Shown here in pieces: positions 1,829 to 43,780 of a stretch of DNA of 64,000 nt. This DNA comes from an uncultured Chloroflexota bacterium (GTDB taxonomy: Bacteria > Chloroflexota > UBA11872 > UBA12225). The stretch is taken from the NCBI GenBank assembly GCA_902805635.1, contig CADCTC010000204.1:10903-74902 (forward strand). Direction: 5' to 3'. A program made the translations under genes and the position numbers. The notes under the pieces were generated by a model, which was not told the origin of the DNA, made no database searches, and worked only from the letters and a program-made list of their open reading frames with translations. Each line of letters begins with the position of its first letter. Position 1 is the first letter of the stretch.

Positions 1829-2125
1829 GGTCCGGAGTCTCTCGTACGTGAAATCTGGATGGTCGTCACGGTTGCCCCCTCAAGACTGCGAGTCCCTTAG
1901 CCAGGTGTAGCTCAGCGCACACGTTATGCAACTGACTTGCACTCACTCGGGACAGGAGTCTTTCACGCCAGCGAGCGGAAGAGGGAAAGAGTTGGCGCCC
2001 TATATCGTTAAGCATGTGGCCTTTCCGTCTAGCCTGGCACAGAAGTAGGCACGTCCCCGCCAAAGCGCGGTACTATCCTGGTGGCCCAGGGCATCCCTGG
2101 TCTTCATAGGAAGGAACCTATTCAC

Positions 2126-18877: not shown

Positions 18878-20235
18878 GCGCTCTCGCCGGGCAGGTGGCG
18901 CCAGCGAGCAGGGTGTTCGACGGCAACGTCGTACGGCCGGCCGCGGCGCTCCACGCGCAGCTCGTACAGGCGGTCGTGGTAGACGAGAACGTCGCCGGGA
19001 GCGGCGATGCCGTCGCGGTCGCGGTAGACGTGCGGGGAGAGGAAGTAGCGGCCACGGCCGAGGAGGAGTGGGTCAAGACTGATCTCGAACGTCCCGTGGC
19101 CATGAAGCGGCGGGATGCGCAGGCCGGCGTCGCGCGCGTCCAGGCCGAGGGCAGCCACACCGTCGGTCCGGGTCGCGAGCACGACCATCGCGAGGTCATC
19201 GAACGGCGCATCGCCCTCGTACTCGAGTCGCAGTGTGAGGGCCTCGCCCGCGAAGTACTCCTCTTGCGGGGCGCCCTGGGGACCGAGCAGCTCGACACGC
19301 GTGAACCGAAGCTCGCCGGTGCCCCAAACGTGAGCGTCGTCTGCCACACGTGGACCGGCCGAGGAGGCGGGGGAGGCGGGAGAGTCGCTGAAGCGGCGCC
19401 GGTCGCCAAGGGCGCGCGCCTCGTTCTGCTCGTGACGCCTCAGGGCCGCGTCGTAGTCACGACACACCGTGGCGGGGTCGCCGTCGCCGGCAAGCTCCCC
19501 GGCTTCGATCCAGAGGGCGCGGCGACACAAGCGTTGGACGAGGTACGTGTTGTGAGAGACGAATAGGACGGTGGCGCCGCTCTCGCAGATCTGGCGGATG
19601 CGCTCGAAGCACTTCGCGATGAAGGCGGCGTCTCCGGCGGCGAGCGCTTCGTCGATGATCAGGATCTCAGGATCGACGCTGATCGCGACGGAGAACGCGA
19701 GTCGCGCCTGCATGCCCAACGAGTACGTCTTGAACGGCATGTCCATGTAGGCGCCGAGCTCCGCGAACTCCACGATCGAGTCGTACTTTCGCCTCACTTC
19801 CGCCTCACTCATGCCGAGCACGGCGCCACCCAGGTAGACGTTGTCGCGTCCGGTGAACTCCGGATGAAAGCCACTGCCCAGCTCCAAGATCACCGACATG
19901 CGGTAGTTGACGTCGATGTCGCCCTGGGTAGGCGAGCTGATGCCGGCGAGCAAGCGGAGCAACGTGGTCTTGCCGGCGCCGTTGCGGCCGATGACCCCGA
20001 CGATCTCGCCCCGGCCTACGTCAAACGAGACATCGCGTAGGGCCCAGAAGGGGCGATGGCGTGGCCGGCGGCTGATCCACTCCAGCACGCGGTCCACCTG
20101 GCGCTGATAGACCGGAAACCGCTTGGAGACGTGACGCACGGAAAGCGCGAGGGGAGACGAATCCTCACCCCCAGCCCCTCTCCCACAGGAGCGGGGAGGT
20201 TCGCCGGCAACCGGCTCCGCGGGAAGGGCGGTCAT
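18874..20235 (-). CDS. wzt: Polysaccharide ABC exporter ATP-binding protein (Wzt/TagH-like) with a C-terminal beta-rich extension
   Basis: Walker A (GRNGAGKTT), the signature (YSLGMQARLAFS) and Walker B (ILIIDEAL) are present. A tail of about 200 aa follows the NBD (GTGELRFTRVELLG...LTLRLEYEG...) and resembles Wzt C-terminal carbohydrate-binding domains. Confidence 0.85.
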   Translation of the reverse strand: MTALPAEPVAGEPPRSCGRGAGGEDSSPLALSVRHVSKRFPVYQRQVDRVLEWISRRPRHRPFWALRDVSFDVGRGEIVGVIGRNGAGKTTLLRLLAGISSPTQGDIDVNYRMSVILELGSGFHPEFTGRDNVYLGGAVLGMSEAEVRRKYDSIVEFAELGAYMDMPFKTYSLGMQARLAFSVAISVDPEILIIDEALAAGDAAFIAKCFERIRQICESGATVLFVSHNTYLVQRLCRRALWIEAGELAGDGDPATVCRDYDAALRRHEQNEARALGDRRRFSDSPASPASSAGPRVADDAHVWGTGELRFTRVELLGPQGAPQEEYFAGEALTLRLEYEGDAPFDDLAMVVLATRTDGVAALGLDARDAGLRIPPLHGHGTFEISLDPLLLGRGRYFLSPHVYRDRDGIAAPGDVLVYHDRLYELRVERRGRPYDVAVEHPARWRHLPGESA

Positions 20236-21065
20236 AGGATGTCGCTCAGGAAGGCGCGTGTGCGCTCGAAGGCGACGTAGCCGGCGAGGAAGGTCACGCA
20301 GGCGACAACGGCGAAGATGACGAAGCTGGTGGCGTGCACCGGGCCGCCGAGAAGCGCGTCGCGATAGAGGCGGATGAGGTGGGTGAGGGGATTGAGCTCG
20401 ACAAGAGGACGGAGCAGGCGCGGCGTGTCGGCATCGGTGTAGAAGATCGGCGTGAGGAACATGCCCGCCATCAGGGCGATGGACACCAGCTCGCGCACGT
20501 CCCGCAGCACCGCGCCGGCGGCGCCGAGCAGCCAGGCGATGCCGGCGAGAAAGACGACTTGCAGTGCAATAGTGGGGAGAAGCAGGGCGAGCGACGGCGC
20601 CACGGCGCCACGCGACCAGACGGCGATTCCAATCAGGGCAATCAGGCCGGCGACCTGGGAAAAAGCAGTGGTGTAGAGGGCGGTGAGCGGCAGGACCTGG
20701 ATCGGGAAGACGGCGAATTTGACCAGGTTGCGGTGCTCGGCCATCGCCTGCGTGGCGCGGCCGGCGACCTCAGAGAACGCGACCCAGGGGAGCAGGCCCG
20801 CAACGACGTGGAGGGCGTACTCCTGGGGCGCGCCGCCGGGGCTGAGGCGTCCGCGGAAAACGGTGGTGAAGATCACCGTGTAGAGCGCGACGAAGAGCAG
20901 AGGGTAGACGGCAGCCCACAGGTAACCGATGGTCGAGCCGGCATAACGCTGCCGCAAGTCGCGCTCGGCCATGCGGCGCAGCAGCCGCCGGTGGCGCCAG
21001 AGCCCCAGGATGCGCCGAGGCAGCGGCGCGTCGATGTCGCGCGCCTCGACGTATCGCCAGCTCAT
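20232..21065 (-). CDS. wzm: ABC-2 type polysaccharide exporter permease (Wzm-like)
   Basis: It is a six-TM protein with the typical N-terminus (LLRRMAERDLRQRYAGSTIGYLWAAVYPLL). It has 4-nt overlaps with both neighbours. Confidence 0.85.
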   Translation of the reverse strand: MSWRYVEARDIDAPLPRRILGLWRHRRLLRRMAERDLRQRYAGSTIGYLWAAVYPLLFVALYTVIFTTVFRGRLSPGGAPQEYALHVVAGLLPWVAFSEVAGRATQAMAEHRNLVKFAVFPIQVLPLTALYTTAFSQVAGLIALIGIAVWSRGAVAPSLALLLPTIALQVVFLAGIAWLLGAAGAVLRDVRELVSIALMAGMFLTPIFYTDADTPRLLRPLVELNPLTHLIRLYRDALLGGPVHATSFVIFAVVACVTFLAGYVAFERTRAFLSDIL

Positions 21066-22708
21066 GCGCGGACAACCTTACTGATGCTCCTACGAATCAG
21101 GGCAGTGGTCAGCTCACGCAGGCGGAACGCTCGCGCGGCAGGATCACGGCGCGGCAGTTGCAGGCTGACCCCGGCCGCAAACGAGGCGACCGCTCTCTCC
21201 AAAGCGTCAAGGGAGCGCGAGTCGGCGTCCCAGGCGGACACGCCAGAGAGCCGGCACAGCATGCCGTGGTGCGCCAGGAAGAGGAAGTGAGCGCGTGCCT
21301 TGCAGCGGCCGAGGGAAAGGCGGAACGTTTGCTCCAAGGCCGAGACTCCGTCAATCTGCCGATGTGCCGAGTCGAGGAGCTCGGCACGCTGGTCGGCAGG
21401 AAGCCAGCGGCGAACGGAGTCGGCGGCCTGGACGTCAAGGGGGGCGTCCGCGGCAGGACGCATGTAGAGGCCGAGCTGGAACGGGGGAATGGCGAGCGGA
21501 GGCTCGACGAGAGTCATGGCGCCATCGCGACGAACGGTCCACGCTGCGGGCACATGGACTGTCACACCGGTCCACTGGTCGGCCAGGGGCCGATCAAACG
21601 GCGGGACGACCAGGCCGACGGGCGCTGACGCAGCCGGTACGGCGCCGAGCGGCAGAGTGAGCGCAGGCGCCTCAACGGGAGCTTCGACGAACGGCGCTGG
21701 TGAGTCGCCGGGGGGTAAACGGACGCCACGAACGTGAACGGCGCCGCCGCACTCGCCCCAACGAGAGATCGCATCCGGCGTCGTAAAGCGAATGGGTCGG
21801 CTGAGGACGACATCCCCGAAGCCGGCATCGTGGAACCACCGGCGGACTTCGGTCTGCGTGTGGACGTGGTTGTACTGAGGTGAATACGCGTCGAACGTGT
21901 CGAACACGAGCGTGGATAGGTCGGCGGCGCTGCGCGCCCCGCTGCCGTCGCAGACTTTCAGCCAGGGGCTGATCAGCCGGTAGACAGCAGGATCACGGAT
22001 GACCAGCAAACGGCACGCGCGGTAGCGCAGCGCGTCGGGCAGGCAGCGGAAGAGGGCGCGCACCATATCGGTAAGCAGGCGGTGGCGGAGGCCTGTCCGC
22101 TCATAGAGCATGACGTAGAGGGTGCCGCCGGGCTTGACCAGGGGAACCAGGCGCTCGAAGGCGGCCCTTGTGCTGACGGTGTGGTGCAGCACCCCCCAGC
22201 TCATCACGAAGTCGAACGACTCCGGAGGGAAGGGCAGGTCGAACAGACTGGCCTGGTAGACCCGCGCGCCAGGAAAGGGAGCAAGCGCGCGCCGGGTGGC
22301 GGTTACGCCCGACTCGGTGAGATCGACCGCTAAGACCTCTGCGCCCATGGCGGCGAGAGCGTAGCTCCATCGGCCGGAGCCGCAGCCGGCGTCGAGGCAG
22401 CGCCTCCCGGCGAACCATTCGCGCGGCAGGCGCACGTCCTGGCAGAGCTCATCCGCGAGCGCCAGGCGGAAGTGGACCCGCTGGGAGTCCTCGTAGCGGG
22501 CGTGTTCGAAGTCGAAGGAACGCTGGACCTGCCGCTCGCCGGCGGCCAGACCGATCAGGAGCCGGGGGACTCCGTCGCGGACGGGGAAGACACGCCCGCA
22601 ACCCAGACAGCGTAACGCAGCCGGTTCGGAGGTCAGACGGCCGCGGCAGGCCGGGCAGACCAGTAGCGCCTCAGCGGGAGCAGCGACTGAAGCGGTGTCG
22701 GTGGTCAT
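21062..22708 (-). CDS. Zinc-ribbon (Trm112-like) plus class I SAM-dependent methyltransferase with a C-terminal domain of about 230 aa of unknown function
   Basis: The zinc ribbon reads LLVCPACRGRL...LRCLGCGRVFPVRDGVPRLL, and motif I is CLDAGCGSGRW. I trimmed the start to ATG 22708 (ATGA overlap with the upstream stop). The 867-aa track ORF is an Arg-rich alternate-frame extension. Confidence 0.8.
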   Translation of the reverse strand: MTTDTASVAAPAEALLVCPACRGRLTSEPAALRCLGCGRVFPVRDGVPRLLIGLAAGERQVQRSFDFEHARYEDSQRVHFRLALADELCQDVRLPREWFAGRRCLDAGCGSGRWSYALAAMGAEVLAVDLTESGVTATRRALAPFPGARVYQASLFDLPFPPESFDFVMSWGVLHHTVSTRAAFERLVPLVKPGGTLYVMLYERTGLRHRLLTDMVRALFRCLPDALRYRACRLLVIRDPAVYRLISPWLKVCDGSGARSAADLSTLVFDTFDAYSPQYNHVHTQTEVRRWFHDAGFGDVVLSRPIRFTTPDAISRWGECGGAVHVRGVRLPPGDSPAPFVEAPVEAPALTLPLGAVPAASAPVGLVVPPFDRPLADQWTGVTVHVPAAWTVRRDGAMTLVEPPLAIPPFQLGLYMRPAADAPLDVQAADSVRRWLPADQRAELLDSAHRQIDGVSALEQTFRLSLGRCKARAHFLFLAHHGMLCRLSGVSAWDADSRSLDALERAVASFAAGVSLQLPRRDPAARAFRLRELTTALIRRSISKVVRA

Positions 22709-24801
22709 CTGGCTGTGGCTTGGGCTGGCAGAGCCGGTCGCGCGGGTTGAAGAACGCGGAACTGGCGCGTCACCAGGAAGGTGACCTGGCAAAGCGCCCA
22801 GGCGAGGATGGCGGCCGCGAACGGGGCAGCCATGTAGGCGTAGCGGACCTGGAAGAGACGGCTCTGCGGCACACCGGCAATGAACCCGATGGGGGGCAGC
22901 ACGCCCACGAGACACAGCGCGAGCGGCAGCCAGTGTGTGCGCCAGAGGCGCCGCCGAGCGAGAAGACCGGCGCAGCCGGCGAAGAAAACCAGCGGCACGA
23001 GCCACGGAGACTCCAGGCCGAGGTAGCCGCCCAGCCCCGCGGTGAACCGCGAGGAAGCACCGGCCACGGCATAGTGGGGAGAGATAAACATCTCCTGGGC
23101 GTAGATGCGGAAGATCCCCCGGGTGGTGTACCAGGCCAGCTGAGGCGGCGAGTGGTAGCTGAACAGGTACTCGGCCGCGGTGACGCGGCGATCTTCCTCG
23201 AATCCCGGCGTGCCAAGCCGGTCGGCGAACTCCTCCTTCCAGTTGGCGGTGGCGATGATCGTGGAGGCAGGAAACGCCTCGCCACGCGAGCGGGCGTACC
23301 CCGCGAAGACCGGTACCAGCACGAGCGCGAGCAGCGCGGCTGTGGCGCCAAGACGAACGAGGCTCCAGCGCTGTGCGACCGCGGCCCAGAGCAGCACGAA
23401 ACCGGCGAACGGCAGCGCGTCTAGGCGGGTGAGGCCCGCAGCGGCGGCGCTCAACGGCGCAAGCCATGACAGCCGCAGCCGGCCGGTGGAAGGCAGCCAG
23501 AGCAGCGCGACCGCGATGGCGAGGAAGACCCCGGTTGCCTCCTCGCGCAGGCCAACTACGCCGTTGCGGACCCACGTGGAGTCGGCGCTCATGAGGTAGG
23601 CGGTAACGGCGCCCGCCGGGCGGCCGAGTAGCGCGGCGACGGCAACCCCACTCACCACCACCCACGCAAGGGAGGAGGCGAGCGAAAAGAAGACGGCGTG
23701 CAGCTCACCGGGACCGAGAAGCGACAGCCAGGCCTGGAGCAGGAAGACGTAGAGGGGCTCGCGGAACCACGTGCTGCCGCCGAAGAACAGCTCCAATCGC
23801 CCGGCGCCTTCGGCTGACATTTTGCGGCCAAGCGAGAGCGCCTCGTCGTAGTAGCTCTGCGCGTCGAGGCTGAGCGGCACCGAGTACTCCGGGCTGACCA
23901 CGAGGTGCTGCCAGCGCCACTGGAACCCGGCGAGAACAGCACCGATGAGCAGCGCGCAGAAGGCTGCACTGTCGAGCGTATGGCGCTGCCCTCGGGCGCC
24001 AGCGCGATGCATGCGGAGCGTGACGAACGCGGCCAGTGTCAGCCACCAGGCGACCATGCCGGCCGGCTCAGCGGACGAGCGTGCGAAGGTGAGAACCAGA
24101 TACCCCACGAATCCCAGTAGCGGAGATATCAAGAACGGGAGAACGTCGTGTGAGACACGTCGGCGTGGAACAGGTGCGTGCGAGGCGCCGTTCGCCAGAG
24201 GATCGGCAGCCGTCCTGGTGGCGGTTATGAAAATTTGCAAACAAGCCGTCGCGAGAGCAGCTGTTGCCGTTACGTAGAGCACGGCAACGATGGCCGGATC
24301 GACTTCCGTCGCGCCGATCCCGGGCGGAGGGGGGCCTAGCAGCAGGTGCGCCAGCGTGGCGAGGCATGGGTCCAACGTATTGCCAAGGACTTGCCAGGCC
24401 ACGTCGCCACCGCCTCGAAGTGTGAGTACGGTCGCGGCAGCAGGCGGAAGGACGGCCAGGGAAACGGGCAGCAGCGCCGCGGCAGCGCGGCGTGACCACA
24501 GCGGCAACCCACCCTTCGCATCGGCAGCGAGCGGCGCGAGGAGAAGCGCAGCCAGCGCGAGTCGGCCGAGCACACCGTTGCCAAGGAACGCTGCACCGGC
24601 GGATGTAGGAGCCGCTCTCAGAGCAAGTAGCGCCACCGGATCTGCCAGCCACAGCGCAGCCGCGCCGCCGGCGACGGCGAGAACGACCTGCCGGTGACGC
24701 GCCAGTAGGTGCCACAGGGTGGCAGTCCAGCCGGGACGGGTGGCGGAAAGCAGCCACACGGCTGCGCCGAGCGCCAGCGACACAGCGGCGGATGGGCTCA
24801 C
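22705..24801 (-). CDS. Polytopic membrane protein, GT-C-like (ArnT/PMT-type) glycosyltransferase module
   Basis: It has more than 10 hydrophobic segments. The loop motif LDAQSYYDEALSL...FREPLYVFLLQAW is present. The C-terminal signature NWKEEFADRLGTPGF...YLFSYH...RGIFRIY is shared with both halves of the 1846-aa protein. The GTG start at 24801 overlaps the upstream stop (GTGA). Confidence 0.65.
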   Translation of the reverse strand: MSPSAAVSLALGAAVWLLSATRPGWTATLWHLLARHRQVVLAVAGGAAALWLADPVALLALRAAPTSAGAAFLGNGVLGRLALAALLLAPLAADAKGGLPLWSRRAAAALLPVSLAVLPPAAATVLTLRGGGDVAWQVLGNTLDPCLATLAHLLLGPPPPGIGATEVDPAIVAVLYVTATAALATACLQIFITATRTAADPLANGASHAPVPRRRVSHDVLPFLISPLLGFVGYLVLTFARSSAEPAGMVAWWLTLAAFVTLRMHRAGARGQRHTLDSAAFCALLIGAVLAGFQWRWQHLVVSPEYSVPLSLDAQSYYDEALSLGRKMSAEGAGRLELFFGGSTWFREPLYVFLLQAWLSLLGPGELHAVFFSLASSLAWVVVSGVAVAALLGRPAGAVTAYLMSADSTWVRNGVVGLREEATGVFLAIAVALLWLPSTGRLRLSWLAPLSAAAAGLTRLDALPFAGFVLLWAAVAQRWSLVRLGATAALLALVLVPVFAGYARSRGEAFPASTIIATANWKEEFADRLGTPGFEEDRRVTAAEYLFSYHSPPQLAWYTTRGIFRIYAQEMFISPHYAVAGASSRFTAGLGGYLGLESPWLVPLVFFAGCAGLLARRRLWRTHWLPLALCLVGVLPPIGFIAGVPQSRLFQVRYAYMAAPFAAAILAWALCQVTFLVTRQFRVLQPARPALPAQATAR

Positions 24802-26522
24802 GCGGCGGGGAGCGCATCCCGCGGGATGGGCGCGACGGGTGCCCCCAGAGCCGGCGGGTTGCCGCGCAGGCGCTCCAGCCACGGCTGAAGCTTGAGGCGC
24901 CGGAACCCGACAAAGCTCATCTTGAAGAGCAGCGGCGCGTGCTCGACGACACGCACTTTTGAGTAGCCTGAGGTCCGGGCGCGGTAGCGGACTGGGACCT
25001 CGACGATGCGGAGACCGAGACGGGCAGCGCCGAAGAGCAGATCGAAGTCGCCGAAGGGATCGAAGTCCCCGAAGTAGCCGCGGTTGGCCGCCAGGCGGTC
25101 GTAGTCGCGCTTGCGCATGACCTTGGTGCCGCACAGCGTGTCCTTGATCGTCTGGCCCAGCAGCCAGGTAAAGAGCACACTGAAAAACTTGTTGCCGAGC
25201 AGGCGGTGGAACATCATGGCCTCGTCTTCCATGGGGTAGACGAGGCGGGTGCCGTTGACGAAGCCGGCCTTGCGGGTGGCGATCGGGGTGAGGAACTTGG
25301 GCAGCTCTTCGGGCGGCACCGTGAGGTCCGAGTCCAGGATGAATAGGACATCCCCGCCGGCGGCCGCAAATCCCTTGCGAACCGCGTCGCCTTTCCCCAG
25401 GCGCAGCATGCGGACCTCGCCGTCAGCCGGCACATGGGCTGTGGGCGACGGCCGGCCGATGGAAAGGGCTGACTGGCCAGAAGGCAGCACGCCGGACCCT
25501 GGGGCGCTCTCGGCCGGTCGCCAGCCGGTGGTGGCTGCGAAGGGGGCGATCTCCGGGGGTGCGGGCCCATTGGGGTCCGGGACCTGGTCGATAAGCTTGA
25601 TGTCGCGCCGGCCGCGGTAGCGCTCGATCTGCTCGAGGATGCGCTCGCGCGTGCGGTCGGTCGAGGCGCCGTCCACGAAGATGACCTCGGTGTGCGTGCC
25701 CAGATCGGGCATCCGGTCGAGGCAGGCGGCGATGTTGTCTTCCTCGTTGCGGCACGGGACGATCACCGAGCAGCTGAGCGCCTCTGCGCGCGGCGGCTGC
25801 TGCGGCTGCACGACCCAATGGGTAGTGAGCCCCATCAGGCGCAGGAACGGCAGGCGAATCAGCCACTGGTTGAACAGGGGACCAAGGACGGGGACGGGCC
25901 GCGGGAGCAACAGACGCGTGTCGCGCGCCAGCGTCGCGTAGTCGGTGAGCAAGAGCACGTTGTCAACGTCGGCCATGCCGAGCCAGTTCTGGGCGCCCTG
26001 GGGCATTTTCAGCCCCAGTCGTTCGGCGGCGGTGAGCGCTACCTGCCAGGCAAAGTTCCAGTAGGTAATGACAATCCTGGTCTGCGGGGTGCAGACTCGA
26101 TGGAGCACCTCCAGCACCAGCTGGATGTCTTCCAGGTGGCCCAGCAAGTCCGAGCAGATCACGTAATCGAAGGTGCCGCGCACCGGTGGCTCGTGAGCGT
26201 CGGCGCGCAGGAACTGGAGCTGCGGGTGGCGTAGGCGCGCCTGGCGCAGCATGCCTTCGCTCACGTCCAGGCCGACCCCAAACGAGGGCTGGACTGCCGC
26301 CAGCAGGTCGCCGACGCCGCAACCGAGCTCGAGGACGCGCGCGCCGGGAGGGATGGTCTGGCGGGCCAGGCGCTCGATCTCGGCGTAATAGAAGTGGTTG
26401 CGCGCGCGCCAGGCAGGGCGGCCGGTAGCGTATCGGTCAAACCACGCGGCGGTGCGCTGCGCGACGCGCACGCGGTGGCCGCGCCGGAAGTCGGTGTCAG
26501 CCGGTGGAGGAACTGAGGTCAC
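24798..26522 (-). CDS. Fusion protein: N-terminal class I SAM methyltransferase plus C-terminal GT2 (polyprenyl-phosphate sugar synthase-like) glycosyltransferase
   Basis: The methyltransferase motif I is ARVLELGCGVGDLL. The GT2 part shows CSVIVPCRNEEDNI...VIFVDGASTDRT and FILDSDLTV. The start is GTG at 26522. Confidence 0.8.
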   Translation of the reverse strand: MTSVPPPADTDFRRGHRVRVAQRTAAWFDRYATGRPAWRARNHFYYAEIERLARQTIPPGARVLELGCGVGDLLAAVQPSFGVGLDVSEGMLRQARLRHPQLQFLRADAHEPPVRGTFDYVICSDLLGHLEDIQLVLEVLHRVCTPQTRIVITYWNFAWQVALTAAERLGLKMPQGAQNWLGMADVDNVLLLTDYATLARDTRLLLPRPVPVLGPLFNQWLIRLPFLRLMGLTTHWVVQPQQPPRAEALSCSVIVPCRNEEDNIAACLDRMPDLGTHTEVIFVDGASTDRTRERILEQIERYRGRRDIKLIDQVPDPNGPAPPEIAPFAATTGWRPAESAPGSGVLPSGQSALSIGRPSPTAHVPADGEVRMLRLGKGDAVRKGFAAAGGDVLFILDSDLTVPPEELPKFLTPIATRKAGFVNGTRLVYPMEDEAMMFHRLLGNKFFSVLFTWLLGQTIKDTLCGTKVMRKRDYDRLAANRGYFGDFDPFGDFDLLFGAARLGLRIVEVPVRYRARTSGYSKVRVVEHAPLLFKMSFVGFRRLKLQPWLERLRGNPPALGAPVAPIPRDALPAA

Positions 26523-27109
26523 GAGTGGTGGGATCTCCCGAAGAGCGGAACCGCCGCAGGCCGGGCGTGAGCCGTTCTAGGACTGCAACGGCTACCAGCA
26601 GCCCGAGGTAGAAGACGGCGAACCAGATAATCCACTCGTTGATGAGCGCGTCCAACCAGGCGCCGGCACCGGGTGAGAACCACGGCTGCCAGGAGGCCGT
26701 GACGGCGGTGAGCGCCGAGGCCACGGCAGCGGCGAGCGCGCCGGGGCTCCAGCCGGTGGCGGCGCGGGACGTGTCGCCTGGATTGGCCGCCGGTGGTGTG
26801 CCACTGGGCGAGGCGCCAGTCGATTCGGCCGGGAGCCGGGCGGATGTATCGTACACGGAACCACAGTTGATACCACAGACCGGCGCACATGGCGCCCAAG
26901 CAACGGACGGCGACGCTCGGCGGGCCGGTAGGTTCAGCCCCGAGCTGAGCGCCGCGGCGCTGGCCACCCTGGTTGCGCTGGCGGGGCTTCAGTTTCCCTC
27001 TCCCGGCGACTGGATGGCGACGTGGGGCGGAGTGCTGGAGCTCGGCGCGTCGCTCTGGATTGTCGGCTTTGTGGGAACGCTGCCCGCGCTCTGGGTGGTT
27101 GAAGGCGGG

Positions 27110-28462
27110 ATGGCGGGATGGATGTCCCGCCGGCGCGGCGTTGACGTGCCCGCCAACCCCGTCTACCAAACCCCCGGCCCCTTCCCTAAAGGGAAGGGGA
27201 GTGAGACAGCGCCGGCAGCGGTGACGCGCGCTCGACGTGGAGCACGGGCAACGGCTGCCTGGGCGGCGCTGCTCCTGGCGATCTGTGTGGTGGAGCTCCT
27301 GCTGCACGAGGGAGAGCGCAACCCGTTCGTAGCAACCAGCCGGCCGGAGAGCGGAGTAGTGGACTGGACGGTCGCGGATGGTTACGCAACGCTGCTAGAC
27401 GGGCACATTGCCCAGGGGGACGGACTATTCCTGTTGCCAATGCTGGGCCTATTCCTAGGCGACCGGCCGCCGGAGCCGAGTGAGTTCGACCGGCGAGCGG
27501 GACACGTGTTCCTGGTCTCGCTGCTGGCACGGCCAGTCGGCGCATACTGGGCGTTTGCAGTGGTGAACCTGCTGAGTTGGTGGGCGGCAAGCCTGAGCGT
27601 CTGGTGGCTGGCGCGCCGGCGGTGGCCGGGTTCGCCGGTGCCCTGGATCGCCGGCCTGCTGACGGCAACCGGCCAGGGGTTCATTTTCATGTCCACGGCG
27701 CCGCAAGCGCACGCGGCGGCGTTCGCGGCGTTCGCGCTGGTACTCGCGCTGGCGGATAGGCTCCGGCTGTGGCGGCGCGAGGCCGGTCTAAGCGCCTGGC
27801 TGCGGCTGGGCTGGGCCGCGGGGGCGGCAGGGCTCATTTACCTGGTGTACCTGCCGTGCTTGTTGTTCTTCTGGCTCTATGGCGTGGCACGCGGACGGCT
27901 GGCGGGACTGGTGCTGGCGACGGCAGCCACGCTGGGTATCGTGGTGACGTGGGAGCGGCTCGCGGCTGCGCTGCTGGGCCTGAGCTTCTCAGGAGGGAAC
28001 AACGACCTGGCGGGGGAGGCGCTGGGCGGCTGGGTCAACCTGGCGCGGGCGAGCGCGGCACACGTTGTGGGGCAGCTGCACCATAGCTCGGTCCGAGGCC
28101 TGATGGTGGGAGCGTTCTACTACCCCTGGTGGGTGCTGGCGGCGTTTGGGCTTGCCGTGAGCACACGAGACGCCCGACGTTGGGGGCTGGCGGTCATGCT
28201 GGCGACGGCGCTGCCGGCGGTGGCATTCACGACGCGGTTCAACTTGCCTCGGGTGGCGTACTTCATGTACCCGGCGCTATACCCGCTGGCGGCCGCCGGG
28301 ATCGTGTGGCTGGCGGGACAGGTCTGCAGACGCTCCCCTGCCGGCCGTTGGGTCGTGGTGGTGGCGCTCACCGGCGGGCTAGTGGCGCTGACCAACCTGG
28401 ACGTAGTGGGGCTGCAGCACCTGGCACTGTGGTTCCACCACTCCAAGGGGCGTGAATGGTGA
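27110..28462 (+). CDS. Family A polytopic membrane protein (paralogue 1), unassigned, possibly GT-C or polymerase-like
   Basis: It shares ERNPF, F(Y/P)YPWW(V/A)LAA(F/I)G and R(V/A)A(Y/F)(F/Y)MYPA(L/V)Y with 30881..32203. The start is uncertain. Candidates are 26639, 27014, 27110, 27122 and GTG 27224; the last fits the paralogue's length best. Confidence 0.6.
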   Translation: MAGWMSRRRGVDVPANPVYQTPGPFPKGKGSETAPAAVTRARRGARATAAWAALLLAICVVELLLHEGERNPFVATSRPESGVVDWTVADGYATLLDGHIAQGDGLFLLPMLGLFLGDRPPEPSEFDRRAGHVFLVSLLARPVGAYWAFAVVNLLSWWAASLSVWWLARRRWPGSPVPWIAGLLTATGQGFIFMSTAPQAHAAAFAAFALVLALADRLRLWRREAGLSAWLRLGWAAGAAGLIYLVYLPCLLFFWLYGVARGRLAGLVLATAATLGIVVTWERLAAALLGLSFSGGNNDLAGEALGGWVNLARASAAHVVGQLHHSSVRGLMVGAFYYPWWVLAAFGLAVSTRDARRWGLAVMLATALPAVAFTTRFNLPRVAYFMYPALYPLAAAGIVWLAGQVCRRSPAGRWVVVVALTGGLVALTNLDVVGLQHLALWFHHSKGREW

Positions 28463-29223
28463 ACGTTTCGCATCAACTGAGCCGGACGCCCCGGTGGGTG
28501 CCGTGGGCTGCATTGGGTGGGGCGGGAGCGTTGAGCGCGATTGGGGCACCGCTTCCCACGGTCATCGCGCGCGTGTTCTTCGTGACGGTGGCAGGTGGGG
28601 CTCTGGTGATGGCGCTGGAGGCGGTGGGGCGCAGGGCGCAACTGCTGGCGGCAGGGGTGCTCCTGGCACTCGTGGTGGTCCAGATGACGGTACGGCGCCC
28701 GCTGGAAACGCCACCGCCGTCGCAATGGACGGTCGAGCTGCCCACGCCCGCCGAGCGGGTTCGGCACACCATTGCGTTGCCACTAGGCAAGGCGCAGTGG
28801 GGGCAGTGGTGGAGCGGCGCGTCCGGGGCGGCGGTGTACGTGTGCGCGCGCGGACCGCTGGAAGAGGCGGACGGGTTGGATCTGGTGCTCAATGACGAGG
28901 TCCTGGGCCGCATTACGCAGACCCACGCGTTTGGCCCACGGCCGCTGCCGACAAGCGTCGGCTTCTACCGCGTGCCGGTGACGCGCGCCGTGCTGGAGCG
29001 GTCGCCATCCGCGGTGTTCGAGCTGCGCCGCGCAGCGGCAGCCACAGCGCGGCCGGTGGAGATCTGCGGCACGTTCACCTACCGGCCGACCGCGGGCCTG
29101 GAGAGCAGCGCATTCTTCGACGGAGCGCGGTGGACGAGTCCCGGCCCGACACAGCGCGGTCGCTACATCGTCGAGCTGCGGATCGAGCGCCTGCCGGGCA
29201 ACGCGCTGGTGGCGCTTTATTGA
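28456..29223 (+). CDS. Family B protein (paralogue 1): N-terminal TM helices plus a beta-rich extracytoplasmic domain of about 170 aa, unknown function
   Basis: It shares FYRVPVTRAVLER / VFELRR / ARWTS / RYIVELR with 30027..30890. The ATG overlaps the upstream stop (ATGGTGA). Confidence 0.65.
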   Translation: MVNVSHQLSRTPRWVPWAALGGAGALSAIGAPLPTVIARVFFVTVAGGALVMALEAVGRRAQLLAAGVLLALVVVQMTVRRPLETPPPSQWTVELPTPAERVRHTIALPLGKAQWGQWWSGASGAAVYVCARGPLEEADGLDLVLNDEVLGRITQTHAFGPRPLPTSVGFYRVPVTRAVLERSPSAVFELRRAAAATARPVEICGTFTYRPTAGLESSAFFDGARWTSPGPTQRGRYIVELRIERLPGNALVALY

Positions 29224-29287
29224 TCGGGGTGTGACCGGTGCATGGCCGGTGCGGCTCCTGCAAATCCACGCGCCGCCGGCGTCGTGT

Positions 29288-30067
29288 TCAGGCGGCAGTC
29301 GGGCGGGAGCCGGCAATGAGCAGCGACCCCGCCAGGTGGGAGATGAGCGGGAGCCGCTCGAGACACGACTCGACGCGCTGGGCGATCAGTACGACCGACG
29401 CTGGGATGATGGGGTGCAAAAAGTCGAACGGGGTCACTTGGTGCACATCGAGGCCGGCGTCCACCAGGAGGCGGCGCGTCTGCGGCGCAAAGAAGGCGGT
29501 TTCATGGGGAGTGTCACCCAACCAGCGTTTAATCGGAGGGACGTTCTTCTGCACGGCAACCTGGGGGTTGAGCATGTTCGGCTCGGTGAAGGCAAAGCGG
29601 CCACCGGGCTTGAGCACGCGGCGCAGCTCGCTCAGTGCGGGGCCAATGCGGAGGTGGTGCAGGACAGCATTGCCGAGAACGGCGTCGAATGCGCCATCGG
29701 GGAAGGGTAGGCGCTCGGCGTCGCCAAGCACGAACCGGGCGCCACCGCCAATGCCGCGCTCGACCGCGACGTGCACAAGGTCGGCCACCAAGTCGAGCGC
29801 CACGAGCGCGGCGCCGCGCTCGGCGAGCCGGGCGGTGTACTCGCCGGTGCCACAGCCGAGCTCGAGGACGCGCGCGCCGGGCTGCACGCGCGCCGCGTCC
29901 AGCAAGAGAGCGCTGCGCCGGCGCACGCGCTCTTGTCCCGCCAGGCCATGCTGCCCCCACACGGCCGCCGCGCGGCCGGCAATTGCGCGTCCGTGCGAGA
30001 GCTCGGCGAGCTTGCGCAGATCGGAATCAGTACCAGATGCCGGCATGCGGGAGTCCATTAGCGTCAT
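29288..30067 (-). CDS. Class I SAM-dependent methyltransferase
   Basis: Motif I is ARVLELGCGTGEY, and AFDAVLGNAVLHH and LKPGGRFAF follow. The start is trimmed to ATG 30067; ATG 30058 and 30046 are also possible. It overlaps the 3' end of the upstream gene. Confidence 0.8.
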   Translation of the reverse strand: MTLMDSRMPASGTDSDLRKLAELSHGRAIAGRAAAVWGQHGLAGQERVRRRSALLLDAARVQPGARVLELGCGTGEYTARLAERGAALVALDLVADLVHVAVERGIGGGARFVLGDAERLPFPDGAFDAVLGNAVLHHLRIGPALSELRRVLKPGGRFAFTEPNMLNPQVAVQKNVPPIKRWLGDTPHETAFFAPQTRRLLVDAGLDVHQVTPFDFLHPIIPASVVLIAQRVESCLERLPLISHLAGSLLIAGSRPTAA

Positions 30068-30890
30068 AGAAGCGAAGCTCGATGTAATAGCGACTCGACG
30101 CCGGCCGTCCACTGACGAGCGGGACCGGCACGTCGGCAAGGTTGTCGGATGTCCAACGACCGGCGGACCACCGTAAGCTGGCGCCGCGATCCTGACGATC
30201 GGGGTCGTCCTGGCCACCGCAGAACCGTGCGGGTGGCCCCGCTACCCCCTCGCGCCGGAGCTCGACCACCAGCGGCGCCTGGCGCTCCACCACATCACGC
30301 GTGACGGGCAGGTTGTACCAGCCGGCGGCGCCGGGAGGTCCCTTGCGCTCGAGCGCCGCCAGTGGGACCGGCTCGGCGCCGTTCAGCGCGATGACCACGC
30401 CCGCCTCTGGAGAGATCACGTCGGGGCTACACACGGCGATGGCGGCGCGCTGTGCGCTGCGCCAGGCACGCTCCCACTCGCGGTCCCCTGCGGCCGACAG
30501 CGGTAGCTCGCGCCGGATGGCGTCGCCGGGCGCGGAGAGGGAGACTGTCCAGCCCACGACAAGCGGCAGGGGCAGCGTGCCCACGCCGAGTTGCTGCGCA
30601 CCGGTAGCCGCGACGACGAGCACCGCGGCTGCAATTGCGGTTCGAGCTCCGGCGAGGCGCGTGATCAGCGCAAGGCCGGTAGGCCACAACAAGGCAGCGA
30701 AGAACAGCGTGGCCCAGAAACGTGGCCATGGCTTGATCCCGGGTTCCACCAGCAGCGTCCCGCCAAGGGCACACAGCGCGACAGCGGCGGTGGCGCCAAG
30801 GCCGATAACCAGGCCACTCGTGGTGGAAGTGCGGAAGGGATTCTTCGCTTCACCCATAGTGACCGGCACCCGCGGTCGTCTTAACGCCAT
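30027..30890 (-). CDS. Family B protein (paralogue 2)
   Basis: WYNLPVTRDVVER / VVELRR / GRWTS / RYYIELR are present. GGGAG lies 4 nt upstream of ATG 30890. Confidence 0.65.
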   Translation of the reverse strand: MALRRPRVPVTMGEAKNPFRTSTTSGLVIGLGATAAVALCALGGTLLVEPGIKPWPRFWATLFFAALLWPTGLALITRLAGARTAIAAAVLVVAATGAQQLGVGTLPLPLVVGWTVSLSAPGDAIRRELPLSAAGDREWERAWRSAQRAAIAVCSPDVISPEAGVVIALNGAEPVPLAALERKGPPGAAGWYNLPVTRDVVERQAPLVVELRREGVAGPPARFCGGQDDPDRQDRGASLRWSAGRWTSDNLADVPVPLVSGRPASSRYYIELRFYDANGLPHAGIWY

Positions 30891-32203
30891 GACGCTCCCA
30901 TCGACTCGTGGAAGCGAGTAATCAACAAGGTATCGCCGAGCAGGTCGAGGTTGCTGGTGAAGACGACGCTAGCGAGGGCCGCGACGGTGACGGCGAGGGA
31001 GACAGGGTGTATGCGCGCTGGCCGGCCAACTCCTTCAGGGTCGGGGGAGGTGGCAAGCCTCAGGCAGCGAACAACCAAGTCGCCGAGGGTAAGAGCGCCA
31101 CGAGCTGCCATCACGTAGACGGCGGGGTACATGTAGAACGCGGCGCGCGGGAGGGGGATGAGGGAGAGGATGACGATAGCGGGGAGCAGGCCGGCCATGA
31201 AGAAGGCAAGCGCCCAGCTGCGATCCCGCGGCGGACTGGCGAGGAAGCCAATGGCGGCGAGCGCCCACCAGGGGTAAGGAAAGGCACTGGCGAGCGTGCC
31301 GCGGATCGCGGCGGCACCCGCCACCGGGCCGCCGCGCAGGTACGTCAGCACGTCGGAGGGCGGGCGGCGAAGGTTGGTGAGCCATGCGGCGATTGAGCTA
31401 CCGACGGCGGAGCTGTTGTCGGTGGTGAAGCCCAGACCGACCACACTTTGGCCGTAGACCTCCCACGTGGCTGAGATGGCAAGTGTGACCACGGACGCGG
31501 CGAGCAGGTAGCGCCAGGGCACGCGGCGCAGCCCGTAGACCCACCAGAACAGCAGCAGCGGGATATGGGCAAAGTAGATGGTGGAGGCGACGCCGGCAGC
31601 CCAGCCGAGCAGCAGCCAGCCGCGCACCCCTGCCCTCTCGTCGAAGGCCCCCAGCCACTCGGAGAGCGCCAGGACGAGGAAGAACGTGGCGTACGCGGCC
31701 AGGTAGGACATCGGCACGCCGGCCATGAAGATGAAGCCATTCCCCGCGGCGACCAGGAACGAGGTGGCGCACGCCAGGCGGACGTCTCCCCAGCGGCGGC
31801 GCACGAACCAGAAGCACGCCGCCGCTGCGGCCCACCAGAAGAGCCAGTTGAGCAGCAGGAATCCGGTGTAGGGGCCGGCCCACGGCACGACTAGGGAGGA
31901 GAGATACGCATACGCGGCGCGGCGGTCGAGGATGCCGCTGCCTTCGGGACCACGACTGCCCAGGAACATGGCGGTCAGCGTGAGAATGCCGTTGGCGTCG
32001 TGCAGCACGGGCACAGTACCGACCCAGGTGACGTAGCCGTCTCCCGGCAGGAGCTCGCTGACGCTGGACGCCGGCCGGCTGCTGACCAGGAAGGGGTTGC
32101 GGGCGCCGCTGTGGGTGACCAGCTCCAGCGCGCAGACCGCGGCAAGGACCAGCAACCAGAGCGCGTGGAATCGCCGGCCGGCCGGAAGAGTGGAGCGGAT
32201 CAC
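30881..32203 (-). CDS. Family A polytopic membrane protein (paralogue 2)
   Basis: It aligns along its length with 27110..28462 (ARNPF, FPYPWWALAAIGF, RAAFYMYPAVY). The GTG start at 32203 overlaps the upstream stop (GTGA). The longer track ORF overlaps the preceding gene. Confidence 0.7.
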   Translation of the reverse strand: MIRSTLPAGRRFHALWLLVLAAVCALELVTHSGARNPFLVSSRPASSVSELLPGDGYVTWVGTVPVLHDANGILTLTAMFLGSRGPEGSGILDRRAAYAYLSSLVVPWAGPYTGFLLLNWLFWWAAAAACFWFVRRRWGDVRLACATSFLVAAGNGFIFMAGVPMSYLAAYATFFLVLALSEWLGAFDERAGVRGWLLLGWAAGVASTIYFAHIPLLLFWWVYGLRRVPWRYLLAASVVTLAISATWEVYGQSVVGLGFTTDNSSAVGSSIAAWLTNLRRPPSDVLTYLRGGPVAGAAAIRGTLASAFPYPWWALAAIGFLASPPRDRSWALAFFMAGLLPAIVILSLIPLPRAAFYMYPAVYVMAARGALTLGDLVVRCLRLATSPDPEGVGRPARIHPVSLAVTVAALASVVFTSNLDLLGDTLLITRFHESMGASWR

Positions 32204-33147
32204 GTGCCCTGGTTCAGCGCGAGCGAGGCGGTGTAGCTGGCAGTTTCGAGGCGGAGCCGGCCGCCGTGCTGCGGATCCGTCTTCGGCTCGCCGAGGCGCA
32301 CCTGGGTGAGCTCCTCTCGTTGCGGCGCTCGCCAGATCACCTGCCCATCGATTGCCAGCACGATCTCGCGAGTGTCGCGCGTGACCTGCCAATCGTGAGC
32401 CCGGCCATCGCTCCCGGCGGGATGGCGCAGCTCAAAGCCGCGGGCGGCGTTGCGCTCATCCGGATAGGTGACGTGAACGCCATAGTCGACCAGCTGGATC
32501 AGCAGGCGACGCGCCTCGAACACGACGTAGAAGGGGTGAGTTCGCGTGGCGGCGGCCCGCCACGCGACCCGTTCAACGCGCGGAAGCTCCAGCAGGCCGA
32601 CCGGAAGCAGCCAGTTGCGGTGCGGACTCGGCCACTCTCCCAGGCGCGCGACAGCATACGCGGCACCGCCGGGCGGACTGTCCAACACCAGTGCGCGACC
32701 CTCCACGCGAGCTGTACCGCCGCTGCGCGTCTCCAATTCCCAGTCCCGGCGCAATGACGCATCGTCGGCGAAGGTGGCATCGAGCGCAATCACGGGACCA
32801 CCGCGTGTGATTGGGTTCGCTATGCGGGCGTAGTGGACCGCGTCGCTCACCAGCAGGGTGACCGCCGCACATACGAGTGGCAGGCGGCTGCCGGCACCCG
32901 CCTGCGCGCGGATAAGACCCCACACGGCCACTGAGGCGGCACCGCCCAACAGGCTGAGTCGCGCAGCGCGCCCCCATGGCCCGTCGGCAACGGGATCCCA
33001 GGTCAGCAGGCGTAGGGCCACTGCAGCGACAGCCAGCGCCAGCAGCAAGGCAATGCGACGCCGCTCGTCCTGGTCAGCAAGGATGCGCGCTAACGAGGGT
33101 CGGATGCCAGGCGTCGTCGGAGCGGCAAGACTGGCTGGAGGGTGCAT
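32200..33147 (-). CDS. Family C protein (paralogue 1): 3-TM anchor plus a beta-sandwich (ConA/LamG-like?) domain of about 200 aa, unknown function
   Basis: It aligns end to end with 33168..34151 and 43781..44683 (LTWD.VADGP, H.....ANPITRG, LLIQ.V.YG.H.TYPDERN, DW...RD.R.I...IDG...W, VRLGE.K.D..HGG). Confidence 0.7.
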   Translation of the reverse strand: MHPPASLAAPTTPGIRPSLARILADQDERRRIALLLALAVAAVALRLLTWDPVADGPWGRAARLSLLGGAASVAVWGLIRAQAGAGSRLPLVCAAVTLLVSDAVHYARIANPITRGGPVIALDATFADDASLRRDWELETRSGGTARVEGRALVLDSPPGGAAYAVARLGEWPSPHRNWLLPVGLLELPRVERVAWRAAATRTHPFYVVFEARRLLIQLVDYGVHVTYPDERNAARGFELRHPAGSDGRAHDWQVTRDTREIVLAIDGQVIWRAPQREELTQVRLGEPKTDPQHGGRLRLETASYTASLALNQGT

Positions 33148-34152: not shown

Positions 34153-37100
34153 TTAGAAGGTACCTCCAGAGACGTCTGCGGCGATAGCCGGCGCACCCCC
34201 GGCGCCGCTCAGTGAGTGACCACGCCGCACGCGCGACGCCAGCCACAGCGGCACCGCGCATACCGCATACGCCGCGGCGAGCACGGCGTAGGGCAGCGCA
34301 TGGTGAGCGTAGCGCGGCGCGAAGACCCACGGGTTGGGCACGCCGGCCATGAACGCGTAGAACGGCGCCAGGCTGGCCACCACCACGAACGGGATCAGCC
34401 AGCGGCGCGTGGCCAGCAGCAGCGCCGTGCCGGCAATGAAGAGCCACAATGCCACCGGCCGGCCGCCGATGACGAGCTGGTCGCGGAACAAGATGTCCGG
34501 AAAGATGCGAATGAAGCCGCGCACGCTGTATTCCACGAAGGTGGTGATGGAGTGATACCCAAAGAAGTAGGTCATCGGAGAGATGGAGGGGCCGGCTGCC
34601 CAATCGGCCGCGTACGCTTCCTGACTGGGAAAGCCGGGAGTGCCCATGCGTTCCGGGAACTCGAGATTCCGGTTCACCGTGGCGCCATAGGTGCCCGGAT
34701 AGAACGGGTCGAGCCGGGTGAAGGCATACCCCGCGTACATGGGGCCAGCGAGCACGCCCGTGACCAGCACCGCGGCGACCCAGGCACGCCAGTCCCAGCG
34801 TAAGGCGAGCGCGCCTAAGGTCATCACCAATCCCGCCAGCACCAGCATGTCCGCGCGCACCAGGATCAGACCACCGGCGCACGTCCCGACCAGCGCGATA
34901 CGCCACGGGCGCGGTGAATCGCCCGGCCGGGCATCCACGAAGATGGCAGAGACGAGGCCGAGGAAGAAGATCGCCACCAGCTCTTCGCGCAGCCCGGCCA
35001 CCCCGTTGGCGATCTGCGCCGGGTTCAGCGCGTAGAGCAGGCCACCGGCGAGTCCGGCCAGTGGGTGCAGCACGCGCCAGCCCAACCAGCAGGTGAGCGC
35101 CGCGAGCGCGACCGAGAGGCCGAGCGACGCGAGCCGGGTGTGAAAAGCGGACACGCCCAACACGTTGTAGACCAGCCGCAGCGCGAACGGCCAACCCGGC
35201 TCGCGCCCCATGTGGTCGGCGGCGTAGAACGCCGCGGCGGCGCTGACATGGCCATCGAAACCAGACTCGTAGGCGGCTTCCAGGAGCGGCGAGGGCCGCG
35301 CCAGCCGGTAGCGCGACATCTTCTCCGGCACGCCCGCCGCGATCGCCTGGTAGTCACGCGCATCGGGCACCAGAAACTGGTAACGCACCTGCATCAACTG
35401 CTGCCAGCGCGCATCGGTCGCGACCGCGGCCACCACCAGGCAGGCAACAAGGAGCCAGGCACGTCCGTACCGCCGTGCCTGCCCCATACCGCCAGCAGCG
35501 CCTTCGCCCCGGGACGCGCTGACGCTCCCCGCATCGCCTCGACGCAGCGCGGCCCATGCTGCGACCGACGCGGCGACGGTGATGATCAGCCCGGCGGCGA
35601 GACGGGCGGCGCGCAGCGCGTAATCCGCGTCTGGCGAGTTGTGCAGGTCCAGGAGAAGGGACGTGTCCAGTACGGCGCCCATCCGCGCGGTAGGAGCGGC
35701 CGGAGCAGCCAGCGCTGCCAGGCGCGCGACTCCGGCGACCAGGACACCCGCCACCAACCCGCTCGGTCCGGCGAACGACGCTCGCCCCGCACCGCGCGCC
35801 AGCGCGTGCACTATCGCCGCCGCGACCGCAGCGTACGCGACGATGGGAAATGTGGCGTGCGGCACGGTGCCCTCGTCCGTCACCACGCTCACCAGGAACG
35901 AGGGCAGGACGGTCACCTCGCCCGTGGTGGTGTTGGAGGCCGAAAAGCGCAGGCGGTAGACAGTTTCAGTCCCTAACAGCGGCGTCAGGTCGAGCATCTG
36001 TCCGCCCGCGATTTCGCCGAGTGAGGCGTCTCTTAGCACCGGCACAAACGGCGCGCCCTCACCGGCTGCGACTTCGAGCGCGTTGGGGAACGATTCGTCG
36101 GAGAGCGTCTCTCCGGACTCGGCGAGCCTGCGGTTGTAGAACTCCGCCTTGAGCAGGACCACCGAGCGCGGCGGCCGGTCCAGGCGAGTGACGATGCTGC
36201 CGGAGGCGCCGGGAGCCAGCGTCAGGCCGCGGAGCCCAAGACCAAACCCACTGCGCTGCTCCTGGCGAGCGTCTTCGGTCAGAGAGTAATTGAAAAAAGA
36301 ACGGTACAAGTCATGCGCCTGGGCGTCGGGCGCCGCGGCCGTGCCCCATCCGCGCATCGCATCCGGAAACACTGCGGCCGCCACAGCCGCGGCGGCAAGT
36401 GCTGTGCCGGCCAAGGAGGCGCCTGATGGAAGCCACCTCGCGAGTAACGGCGCGGCGCCTCGCCACCACCGGGCAAGCTGCTGCGGCAGACTCTGGCCGC
36501 GCCCGTCAATTCGCAGCACGAGCGCGCCGATCGCAATGCACGCCAACGCCATCGGCGTACCGGGGAAGAGCACCAATTGCATGCCGAATAGCGCGGCGGC
36601 GCGGGACGCGGCAGCCGGCGTTACAACGCCTGCCACCATGGCCAGTGAGGCGTAGCCGAGCCCCACTGCCAAGAGTGCCGGAAGAGAAGGACCGACGCCA
36701 CGGAGCAGGGAACGGTAGGCACGGTTGGCGGCACCGGGACTCACCGCGTTGGCGGCCAGCGCTAGGAGCAGCACACCAGCGGTCAGAGACACCAGCCAGG
36801 CGCGCCAGAAGCCGGCGAGCCAGAGGGGCGGCGCCGCCAGCCGTGTCGCCCCGGCGGGCTCGATGGCCAGCGCGACCGCCAGCGCCCCCGCGAAGATTAC
36901 ACCGATGGGAATGGACCGGCGCGGACCGCCGAGCCGCGACAAGAACCGGAGGGGCAGCGCCGCAGCAAGTCGGGGCCGTGCGGCAGCTACACGGTGGAGC
37001 ACCAGGAGCGGTAGCGCGCCTAAGCCATACCCGGCGATCAGTTCTGTGTACGGCAGGACGTGATGGGCGTAGCGCGGCACGAACATCGGCCCCGGGGCAC

Positions 37101-43462: not shown

Positions 43463-43780
43463 CACGTGCCCATCGTTACCTGTGCCACGAACCCTCCAGT
43501 CCGCTCTCTCGCGCGGACGTGGTTCTGGCGCCGCGTCTAATCCACGGGCTGAAACGTGCCCGAGATTGCCCTGGCGGCTGCCGGTAGCACAACCTTGCCG
43601 GCAACGTTGTAGAACTGTGGCGCCGCCGCTCGAACAACCAATACGACCGTGCCAGCCGCCGGTCCAGACGTGGCCGGCCGGGCACCCCGTGTGATGGCCG
43701 CGGCTCTTCAGGCCGGACCGCGGGAAGGGCAAGCCGCGCGCCAGGCTGTACCAACACACTCGACAACGGCGCCTGCCATC

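Follow-up and report, generated by a model that had tools for sequence, protein, structure and literature searches.

The DNA analysed here (the window) is a 64,000 nucleotide stretch of contig CADCTC010000204.1 from an uncultured Chloroflexota bacterium (assembly GCA_902805635.1); it has a G+C content of ~69% and all coordinates given below refer to it. The window contains two copies of a two-gene module, in each of which a gene for a polytopic membrane protein, which we have designated family A, is followed by a gene for a membrane-anchored protein with a β-rich domain, designated family B. The type-1 module, on the plus strand, consists of A1 (26642–28462; match to the A-family hidden Markov model (HMM), E 2e-147) and B1 (28456–29223; match to the B-family HMM, E 4e-73). 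The type-2 module, on the minus strand, consists of A2 (30881–32203) and B2 (30027–30890). The two modules face each other tail to tail, and a class I S-adenosylmethionine-dependent methyltransferase is encoded between them on the minus strand (29288–30067; Methyltransf_11, 2.5e-24). An earlier note on this DNA had listed these five open reading frames (ORFs), including the methyltransferase, and all five were confirmed. The stop and start codons of the A and B genes overlap as the note had described, by 7 nt (ATGGTGA) at the A1/B1 junction (GAATGGTGA) and by 10 nt at the A2/B2 junction (ATGGCGTTAA). The A2 gene starts with a GTG codon at 32203 and overlaps the stop codon of the gene upstream of it (C1, described below) by GTGA. 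The order of the minus-strand operon is a polytopic ORF of 1846 amino acids (aa), C2, C1, A2, B2 and the methyltransferase; the start of the methyltransferase gene, the final one, overlaps the end of B2. A scan of 26300–32500 for promoters and terminators returned sites that were not above chance expectation.

Alignment of the putative amino acid sequences showed A1 and A2, and B1 and B2, to be paralogues. A1 (here taken as 27110–28462) and A2 shared 38% identity over 431 aa (E 1e-77), and B1 and B2 shared 32% identity over 165 aa (E 1e-15). Every A and B motif quoted in the earlier note was found in the translations. Its statement that both B proteins end in an aromatic residue followed by tyrosine was correct for the B2 type, which ends in W-Y/F, but not for B1, which ends in VALY (Leu-Tyr). 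A nucleotide alignment of the two modules revealed similarity limited to 78 nt at 72% identity and 31 nt at 84% identity, and this near absence of similarity at the DNA level rules out a recent duplication or gene conversion of the modules. Orthologues of the same type from different contigs were 54–69% identical, the five type-1 A proteins being 54–66% identical among themselves; between the types, A proteins were 32–43% and B proteins 21–33% identical. The tail-to-tail organisation, in which A2-B2 faces B1-A1, was also present in the loci designated L001 (from a Chloroflexota metagenome-assembled genome), L008 and L014, and partly in L013 and L018. The earlier note had described the modules as converging head-on around the methyltransferase. 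The convergence recurred in these other Chloroflexota contigs, but the methyltransferase was missing between the modules in L001, L008, L014, L013 and L018. In these loci the modules directly adjoin each other, so the arrangement is not centred on the methyltransferase; an orthologue with 62% identity was found in L003. As the tail-to-tail layout is shared by at least five other Chloroflexota contigs, the duplication and the convergence of the modules are both judged to be old and, on sequence divergence, the A-B duplication is ancient.

The HMMs for A and B were searched in all six frames of every fetched locus. This revealed that B lies directly after A for 16 of the 16 A genes with downstream sequence, on 12 distinct contigs, so the conserved pairing that the earlier note had claimed holds outside this genome. 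Type-1 A (5 examples) was always followed by type-1 B and type-2 A (11 examples) was always followed by type-2 B. Overlap of the stop and start codons was found in both copies in the window and also in L003 and L025. The identity matrices of A and B were correlated (r = 0.94), a value dominated by the two-clade structure of the data. The distant A relative P0058 (A-profile E 2e-83) also had a true B downstream (E 2e-31), and wherever the genetic context was available, B-family proteins were found only next to an A gene. From the adjacency, the frequent start/stop overlap and the matched divergence of the two families we infer a physical A-B complex.

Comparison of A1 and A2 with Pfam and NCBIfam revealed no family at E ≤ 0.1, and a PDB sequence search found nothing with either a single A sequence or a profile of 27 A sequences. 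Ten long distant relatives of A likewise had no Pfam domain. A word-indexed search returned 36 A relatives, all of which were unnamed or annotated as "hypothetical protein", and the named sources were Chloroflexota metagenome bins. Among 1.84 billion representatives searched exhaustively with the profile, just 292 members of the A family were found at E ≤ 0.001. In a set with one genome per GTDB species (185,579 species) the family was present in five loci, all in Chloroflexota.

An AlphaFold model of A2, built with the alignment from the profile search, had a mean predicted local distance difference test score (pLDDT) of 79 and a predicted template modelling score (pTM) of 0.84. It was compared with the PDB using Foldseek and the 50 best matches were considered. 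Twenty-four of the 31 best matches were glycosyltransferases of the GT-C fold class or subunits of GT-C complexes, with probabilities of 0.77–1.0. The eight best matches were STT3 subunits, and STT3 in the yeast and human oligosaccharyltransferase (OST) matched the model at E values of 4e-5 to 4e-4. Other matches were ArnT (5EZM), AglB (3WAK) and PglB (6GXC/3RCE; highest template modelling score (TM-score), 0.52), followed by DPY19, AftB, Pmt4, ALG12, AftA and AftD. STT3, ArnT, AglB, PglB, AftB and Pmt4 were all matched with a probability of 1.0, compared to ≤ 0.16 for unrelated transporters. On the basis of this model, A is very probably a GT-C glycosyltransferase. The earlier note had considered neither A nor B assignable to a named family; this stands in that both are absent from Pfam and NCBIfam, but the Foldseek comparison does place A as a GT-C. 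Among the named GT-C families in Pfam and NCBIfam (STT3/GT66, PMT/GT39, PMT_2-ArnT/GT83, GtrII, GT87, YfhO and others) no A protein scored above a curated cut-off. Sub-threshold matches to the Pfam GtrII family were given by 5 of 27 A members (E 0.002–0.03, best 0.0017; 18 bits against a cut-off of 30), A2 matched PMT at E 0.63 (10 bits against a cut-off of 22.7), and a single A member gave a stray match to EpsG (E 0.62).

The topology of A was read from the helices of the model and the distribution of Arg and Lys (positive-inside rule). A2 is predicted to have 11 transmembrane (TM) helices, with the N-terminus inside and a conserved C-terminal tail outside. Its first outer loop comprises 80 residues (31–110; loop pLDDT 43–59), with helices at 68–80 and 94–105 and the invariant residues D69 and D93/R95; D69 is at the start of the first of these juxtamembrane helices. 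After TM7 there is a conserved 55-residue outer loop. Approximately 22 of 50 invariant A residues, including D69, D93/R95, W312/W313, R353 and N418/D420/H432, were located in outer loops or at the outer ends of helices, and just two were in cytoplasmic loops. As modelled, this conservation of the outer face is the GT-C pattern.

The GT-C core of A1 corresponds to ~27236–28459 and is preceded by two extra conserved TM helices. At the N-terminus, type-1 A proteins have ~100 additional conserved residues, including two hydrophobic helices; this extension was common to five loci and was not found in type-2 proteins. The earlier note had placed the start of A1 at 27110, which would remove these helices; as the N-terminal extension is conserved in five loci, the real start is upstream of this position. 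The ENA gene call for A1 starts at 26642 and encodes 606 aa, and the section from 26642 to ~26900 was not conserved. The A1 start is uncertain and is placed between 26642 and ~26900.

Searches of Pfam and NCBIfam with family B (E ≤ 0.1), and of the PDB with the B profile, returned no matches. Single-sequence and profile searches for relatives identified 34 B-family proteins, all of them stand-alone and 210–296 aa in length. No A-B fusion was present among these 34 proteins or among 149 newly returned A representatives, with the exception of P0128 (280 aa), a fragment in which a single chain matches the C-terminal part of the A profile and then the N-terminal part of the B profile. P0128 could be a natural A-B fusion or the product of a frameshift read-through at an overlapping stop and start. 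The AlphaFold model of B2 (pLDDT 83), the type-2 partner, has three TM helices (21–47, 55–80 and 82–101) followed by a β-sandwich of ~170 residues (114–287); B1, the type-1 partner, is of the same predicted architecture. A basic N-terminus and arginines in the TM2–TM3 loop place the sandwich of B outside. The cysteines C154 and C224 were invariant in all 17 aligned B sequences, including B1, and fit an extracytoplasmic disulfide.

Analysis of Pfam and NCBIfam domain content revealed that the modules lie in one glycan locus, which extends from ~11.3 to 54.4 kb of the window. This locus encodes a Bac_transf priming transferase, GT4 and GT2 enzymes, epimerases, a DegT aminotransferase, a hexapeptide acyltransferase, a GFO oxidoreductase, two AsnB-like amidotransferases, several methyltransferases, and Wzm and Wzt. 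It is a Wzm/Wzt-dependent polysaccharide locus, with the glycan ABC exporter, Wzt (ABC_tran and Wzt_C) and Wzm (ABC2_membrane), encoded at 18874–21065 on the minus strand. Divergent from A1 is a methyltransferase-GT2 fusion (24798–26522, minus strand) that contains Glycos_transf_2 (Pfam, 1e-22) and class I methyltransferase domains. The top NCBIfam match of the fusion was AglJ (7e-22), with all matches below the NCBIfam equivalog cut-offs, and in a PDB search its GT2 domain was closest to the Pyrococcus dolichyl phosphate mannose (Dol-P-Man) synthase 5MLZ (5e-11) and to ArnC. The fusion is a candidate polyprenyl-phosphate-sugar synthase, and its domain content suggests a methylated lipid-linked sugar donor or a methylation that is coupled to donor synthesis. 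Orthologues of the fusion (68–69% identity) were present beside A-B in L001 and L003, where a Wzm/Wzt pair was also encoded nearby, and a GT2 and a methyltransferase were found near A-B in L025.

We consider it probable that A and B together form a two-subunit extracytoplasmic GT-C enzyme which uses a polyprenyl-phosphate sugar donor, and in which B replaces a domain that is otherwise fused. In the pathway that we propose, the enzymes of the locus would assemble a polyprenyl-linked polysaccharide in the cytoplasm, which Wzm/Wzt would export. The methyltransferase-GT2 fusion would make a polyprenyl-phosphate sugar, which would then be flipped to the outer face. A would be the integral membrane GT-C enzyme, with its active site on the outer side of the cytoplasmic membrane, where it would accept the polyprenyl-phosphate-linked donor. 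B would be its dedicated partner, with three TM helices that anchor a disulfide-stabilised β-sandwich on the same side, and would take the place of the C-terminal periplasmic or carbohydrate-binding domain of one-chain GT-Cs; it would probably hold the acceptor glycan or stabilise A. The A-B pairs would transfer the donor sugar onto the exported polymer, A1-B1 and A2-B2 each adding a different residue or forming a different linkage. On this reading, A is a new GT-C family of narrow distribution whose architecture is split over two genes. For the narrower claim that B is a working partner of A, we lean towards acceptance. A bolder version can be put forward only tentatively: an obligate heterodimeric bacterial GT-C with a separate three-TM subunit for acceptor recognition, a counterpart of the eukaryotic PIG-M/PIG-X pair and the first member of a new CAZy family, duplicated early in Chloroflexota to give different linkage specificities.

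Several observations weigh against a two-subunit enzyme of this kind. The TM-scores of the A model to solved GT-Cs were moderate (0.44–0.52), the first outer loop of the model was of low confidence at residues 41–100, and the best structural matches of A were oligosaccharyltransferases, which transfer glycans en bloc. A fold search with the B model (Foldseek against the PDB) returned no significant match, the best E value being 0.06. The low-probability matches were jelly-roll capsid proteins and carbohydrate-binding modules (CBMs) of families CBM27/CBM35 (E ~0.16–0.18, probability ~0.1), so describing the modelled B ectodomain as CBM-like rests on a general β-sandwich shape. Among the distant A relatives, P0101 (582 aa) had no B-like neighbour. 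The downstream neighbour of P0075 and the upstream neighbour of P0081 have N-terminal TM helices and a β-rich domain, like B, and that of P0075 (267–268 aa) ends in RY..ELWL...LAT.Y, similar to the B C-terminus RY..EL..L...Y; homology of these neighbours to B was not demonstrable (hmmsearch E 0.02–0.2, hhalign probability ~1%). No GtrA- or MATE-type flippase was identified among the scanned genes, the small ORFs not having been scanned exhaustively, and the sole candidate was an LPG_synthase_TM-domain membrane protein (44845–45708, plus strand; PF03706, 4.6e-29) that is encoded 13 kb away and could act as a flippase for the lipid-linked sugar.

The role of B is one of the points on which another explanation can be offered. 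A could work alone, with B as a passenger of the operon, for example an acceptor glycoprotein, an accessory for chain length or export, or an envelope anchor. Some distant A relatives have no recognisable B, and the CBM of GT136 was dispensable for activity (PMC11127046), both of which would agree with a passenger. However, the 16/16 adjacency with types that always match, the frequent stop/start overlap and the lack of any B-family protein away from A where context was available would not be expected of one, and since an old duplication each B has diverged in parallel with its own A. We therefore regard a passenger role as unlikely. A different function for the pair as a whole was also considered, namely an oligosaccharyltransferase or ligase that transfers the exported glycan en bloc from polyprenyl-diphosphate to a protein, lipid or wall polymer, with B as the periplasmic domain. 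This would accord with the STT3 subunits at the head of the Foldseek matches and with PglB as the match of highest TM-score; additionally, the locus exports a polymer linked to polyprenyl-diphosphate and no WaaL- or LCP-type ligase was found among the scanned genes. The genetic organisation argues the other way, as two pairs and further polytopic proteins beside a GT2 resembling Dol-P-Man synthase and ArnC form the pattern of monosaccharide addition. No A sequence matched the STT3 or PglB families, the weak sequence hints (GtrII, PMT) were to single-sugar transferases, and the Foldseek scores do not convincingly separate ArnT/PMT from STT3. An oligosaccharyltransferase is on this evidence improbable.

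The earlier note had also raised the question of whether A is like Wzy or an O-antigen ligase, and a polytopic protein of ~440 aa with no Pfam match in a polysaccharide locus could be a Wzy-type polymerase or a WaaL-type ligase. Foldseek placed GT-C enzymes at the top with a probability of ~1.0, and no structure of Wzy, WaaL or SEDS (RodA/FtsW) was among the 50 best matches of A2. ABC-transporter-dependent O-antigen synthesis does not need a Wzy polymerase, and the same applies to the Wzm/Wzt-dependent pathway encoded here. Such an identity for A is highly improbable.

The two-subunit GT-C enzyme that we favour can be compared with several known systems. GT136, encoded by ORF12 of Citrobacter youngae in a Wzm/Wzt locus, is an 11-TM GT-C in which a CBM at the C-terminus binds the acceptor O-polysaccharide, and the three-component extracytoplasmic glycosylation systems are of the GtrA/GtrB/GtrC type (PMC11127046). 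As judged from published architecture alone, A-B resembles these in having an 11-TM GT-C module, a first outer loop with predicted helices and a β-rich domain on the outer face; that this domain binds the acceptor in B is an analogy. An ABC-exported polysaccharide and a candidate GT2 polyprenyl-phosphate-sugar synthase encoded nearby are further points of likeness. In contrast to these systems, the β-rich domain of A-B is encoded by a gene of its own and anchored by three TM helices, A and B have no detectable relation to Pfam or CAZy-linked models, and the candidate synthase carries a methyltransferase domain in the same chain. No GtrA or MATE flippase was identified among the scanned genes, and the locus contains two paralogous pairs tail to tail.

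In structure, the membrane part of A was closest to STT3/PglB/AglB (GT66), in which an extramembrane domain follows the last TM helix of a TM catalytic module, and the A-B pairs are organised likewise. A differs from GT66 in that it has no sequence similarity to it, has 11 TM helices instead of 13 and lacks a fused periplasmic domain, and its context points to single-sugar donors. The WWDYG-type motif of GT66 is located in the periplasmic domain, which A does not have. With ArnT (GT83) and PMT (GT39), A shares a GT-C_A-type fold and an ordered loop after TM7, which corresponds to the conserved 55-residue loop, and its donor would similarly be a polyprenyl-phosphate monosaccharide; A did not match PMT or PMT_2 at a meaningful score, and the acceptor and the partner protein are different. 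A catalytic GT-C subunit with a small anchored partner that has a lumenal domain is known from glycosylphosphatidylinositol (GPI) mannosyltransferase I (PIG-M/Gpi14 and PIG-X/Pbn1). PIG-M/PIG-X, unlike A-B, is eukaryotic and of the GT-C_B class, and the resemblance is conceptual. Neither chain B of 9wno nor any partner subunit was among the 50 best Foldseek matches of the B model. Literature searches for the A family or for split bacterial GT-Cs returned general papers on GT-C enzymes and on three-component systems only.

Enzymes of the GT-C class synthesise and decorate the glycans of cell surfaces in every domain of life, and the bacterial ones are normally single chains. If the two-subunit reading is correct, the acceptor-binding part of a GT-C can be a detachable subunit, and the two diverged cognate pairs would be a natural system for examining how acceptor specificity is encoded. 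The analysis also provides a first functional placement for three unannotated families (A, B and C) and the outline of an envelope-glycan pathway in soil Chloroflexota, the cell surfaces of which are almost unstudied. The rarity of the A family (292 representatives; 5 loci) limits its wider importance unless the split principle is general, and interest would rise if the A-B complex were confirmed.

Family C is represented in the window by three paralogues: C1 (32200–33147, minus strand), C2 (33168–34196, minus strand) and a third copy at 43649–44683 on the plus strand. The C proteins have an N-terminal TM segment and a β-rich domain of ~230 aa, and they had no Pfam or NCBIfam match. Treating B and C as one family was rejected, as the hhalign probability was 6%. 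A family C gene was directly upstream of type-2 A in 8 loci, and the conserved unit may be C-A2-B2. A polytopic protein of 466 aa (ENA call) is encoded divergently from the third C copy, at 42038–43435 on the minus strand. It had 32% identity over 82 aa to the C-terminal half of A, in the YPWW...PR..Y.YPA region, which is a weak local similarity. L001 contains a comparable pair at 1373–3654, a 442-aa polytopic protein with a C-like protein. The 42038–43435 protein and C may be another pair of a GT-C and an anchored ectodomain, and A2 with family C may be a further one.

The 1846-aa polytopic ORF at the start of the minus-strand operon (34153–39693) consists of two tandem copies of a unit of ~920 aa. 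Each unit seems to contain TM helices, a β-rich segment and a polytopic C-terminal half. The protein had no Pfam or PDB sequence match, and a single-unit homologue of 996 aa is encoded by L001 (6037–9027). An ENA assembly from the same sample has a one-base difference at window position 35032, and in it this ORF is called as two genes of 1501 aa and 282 aa. Another polytopic protein (22705–24801, minus strand; 698 aa in the ENA call, ORF 809 aa) is encoded between a methyltransferase with a Trm112p-like segment and the methyltransferase-GT2 fusion. It had no family or PDB sequence match; it was 54% identical to a protein of L001 (16886–19003) and distantly similar to the 1846-aa protein.

Two methyltransferases, at 21062–22708 (minus strand) and 39709–40800 (plus strand), have an N-terminal Trm112p-like zinc-ribbon segment. 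The first of these is just upstream of Wzm/Wzt in the same orientation, with its stop codon overlapping the Wzm start. The Trm112p-like methyltransferases may introduce a chain-end modification that is read by Wzt_C.

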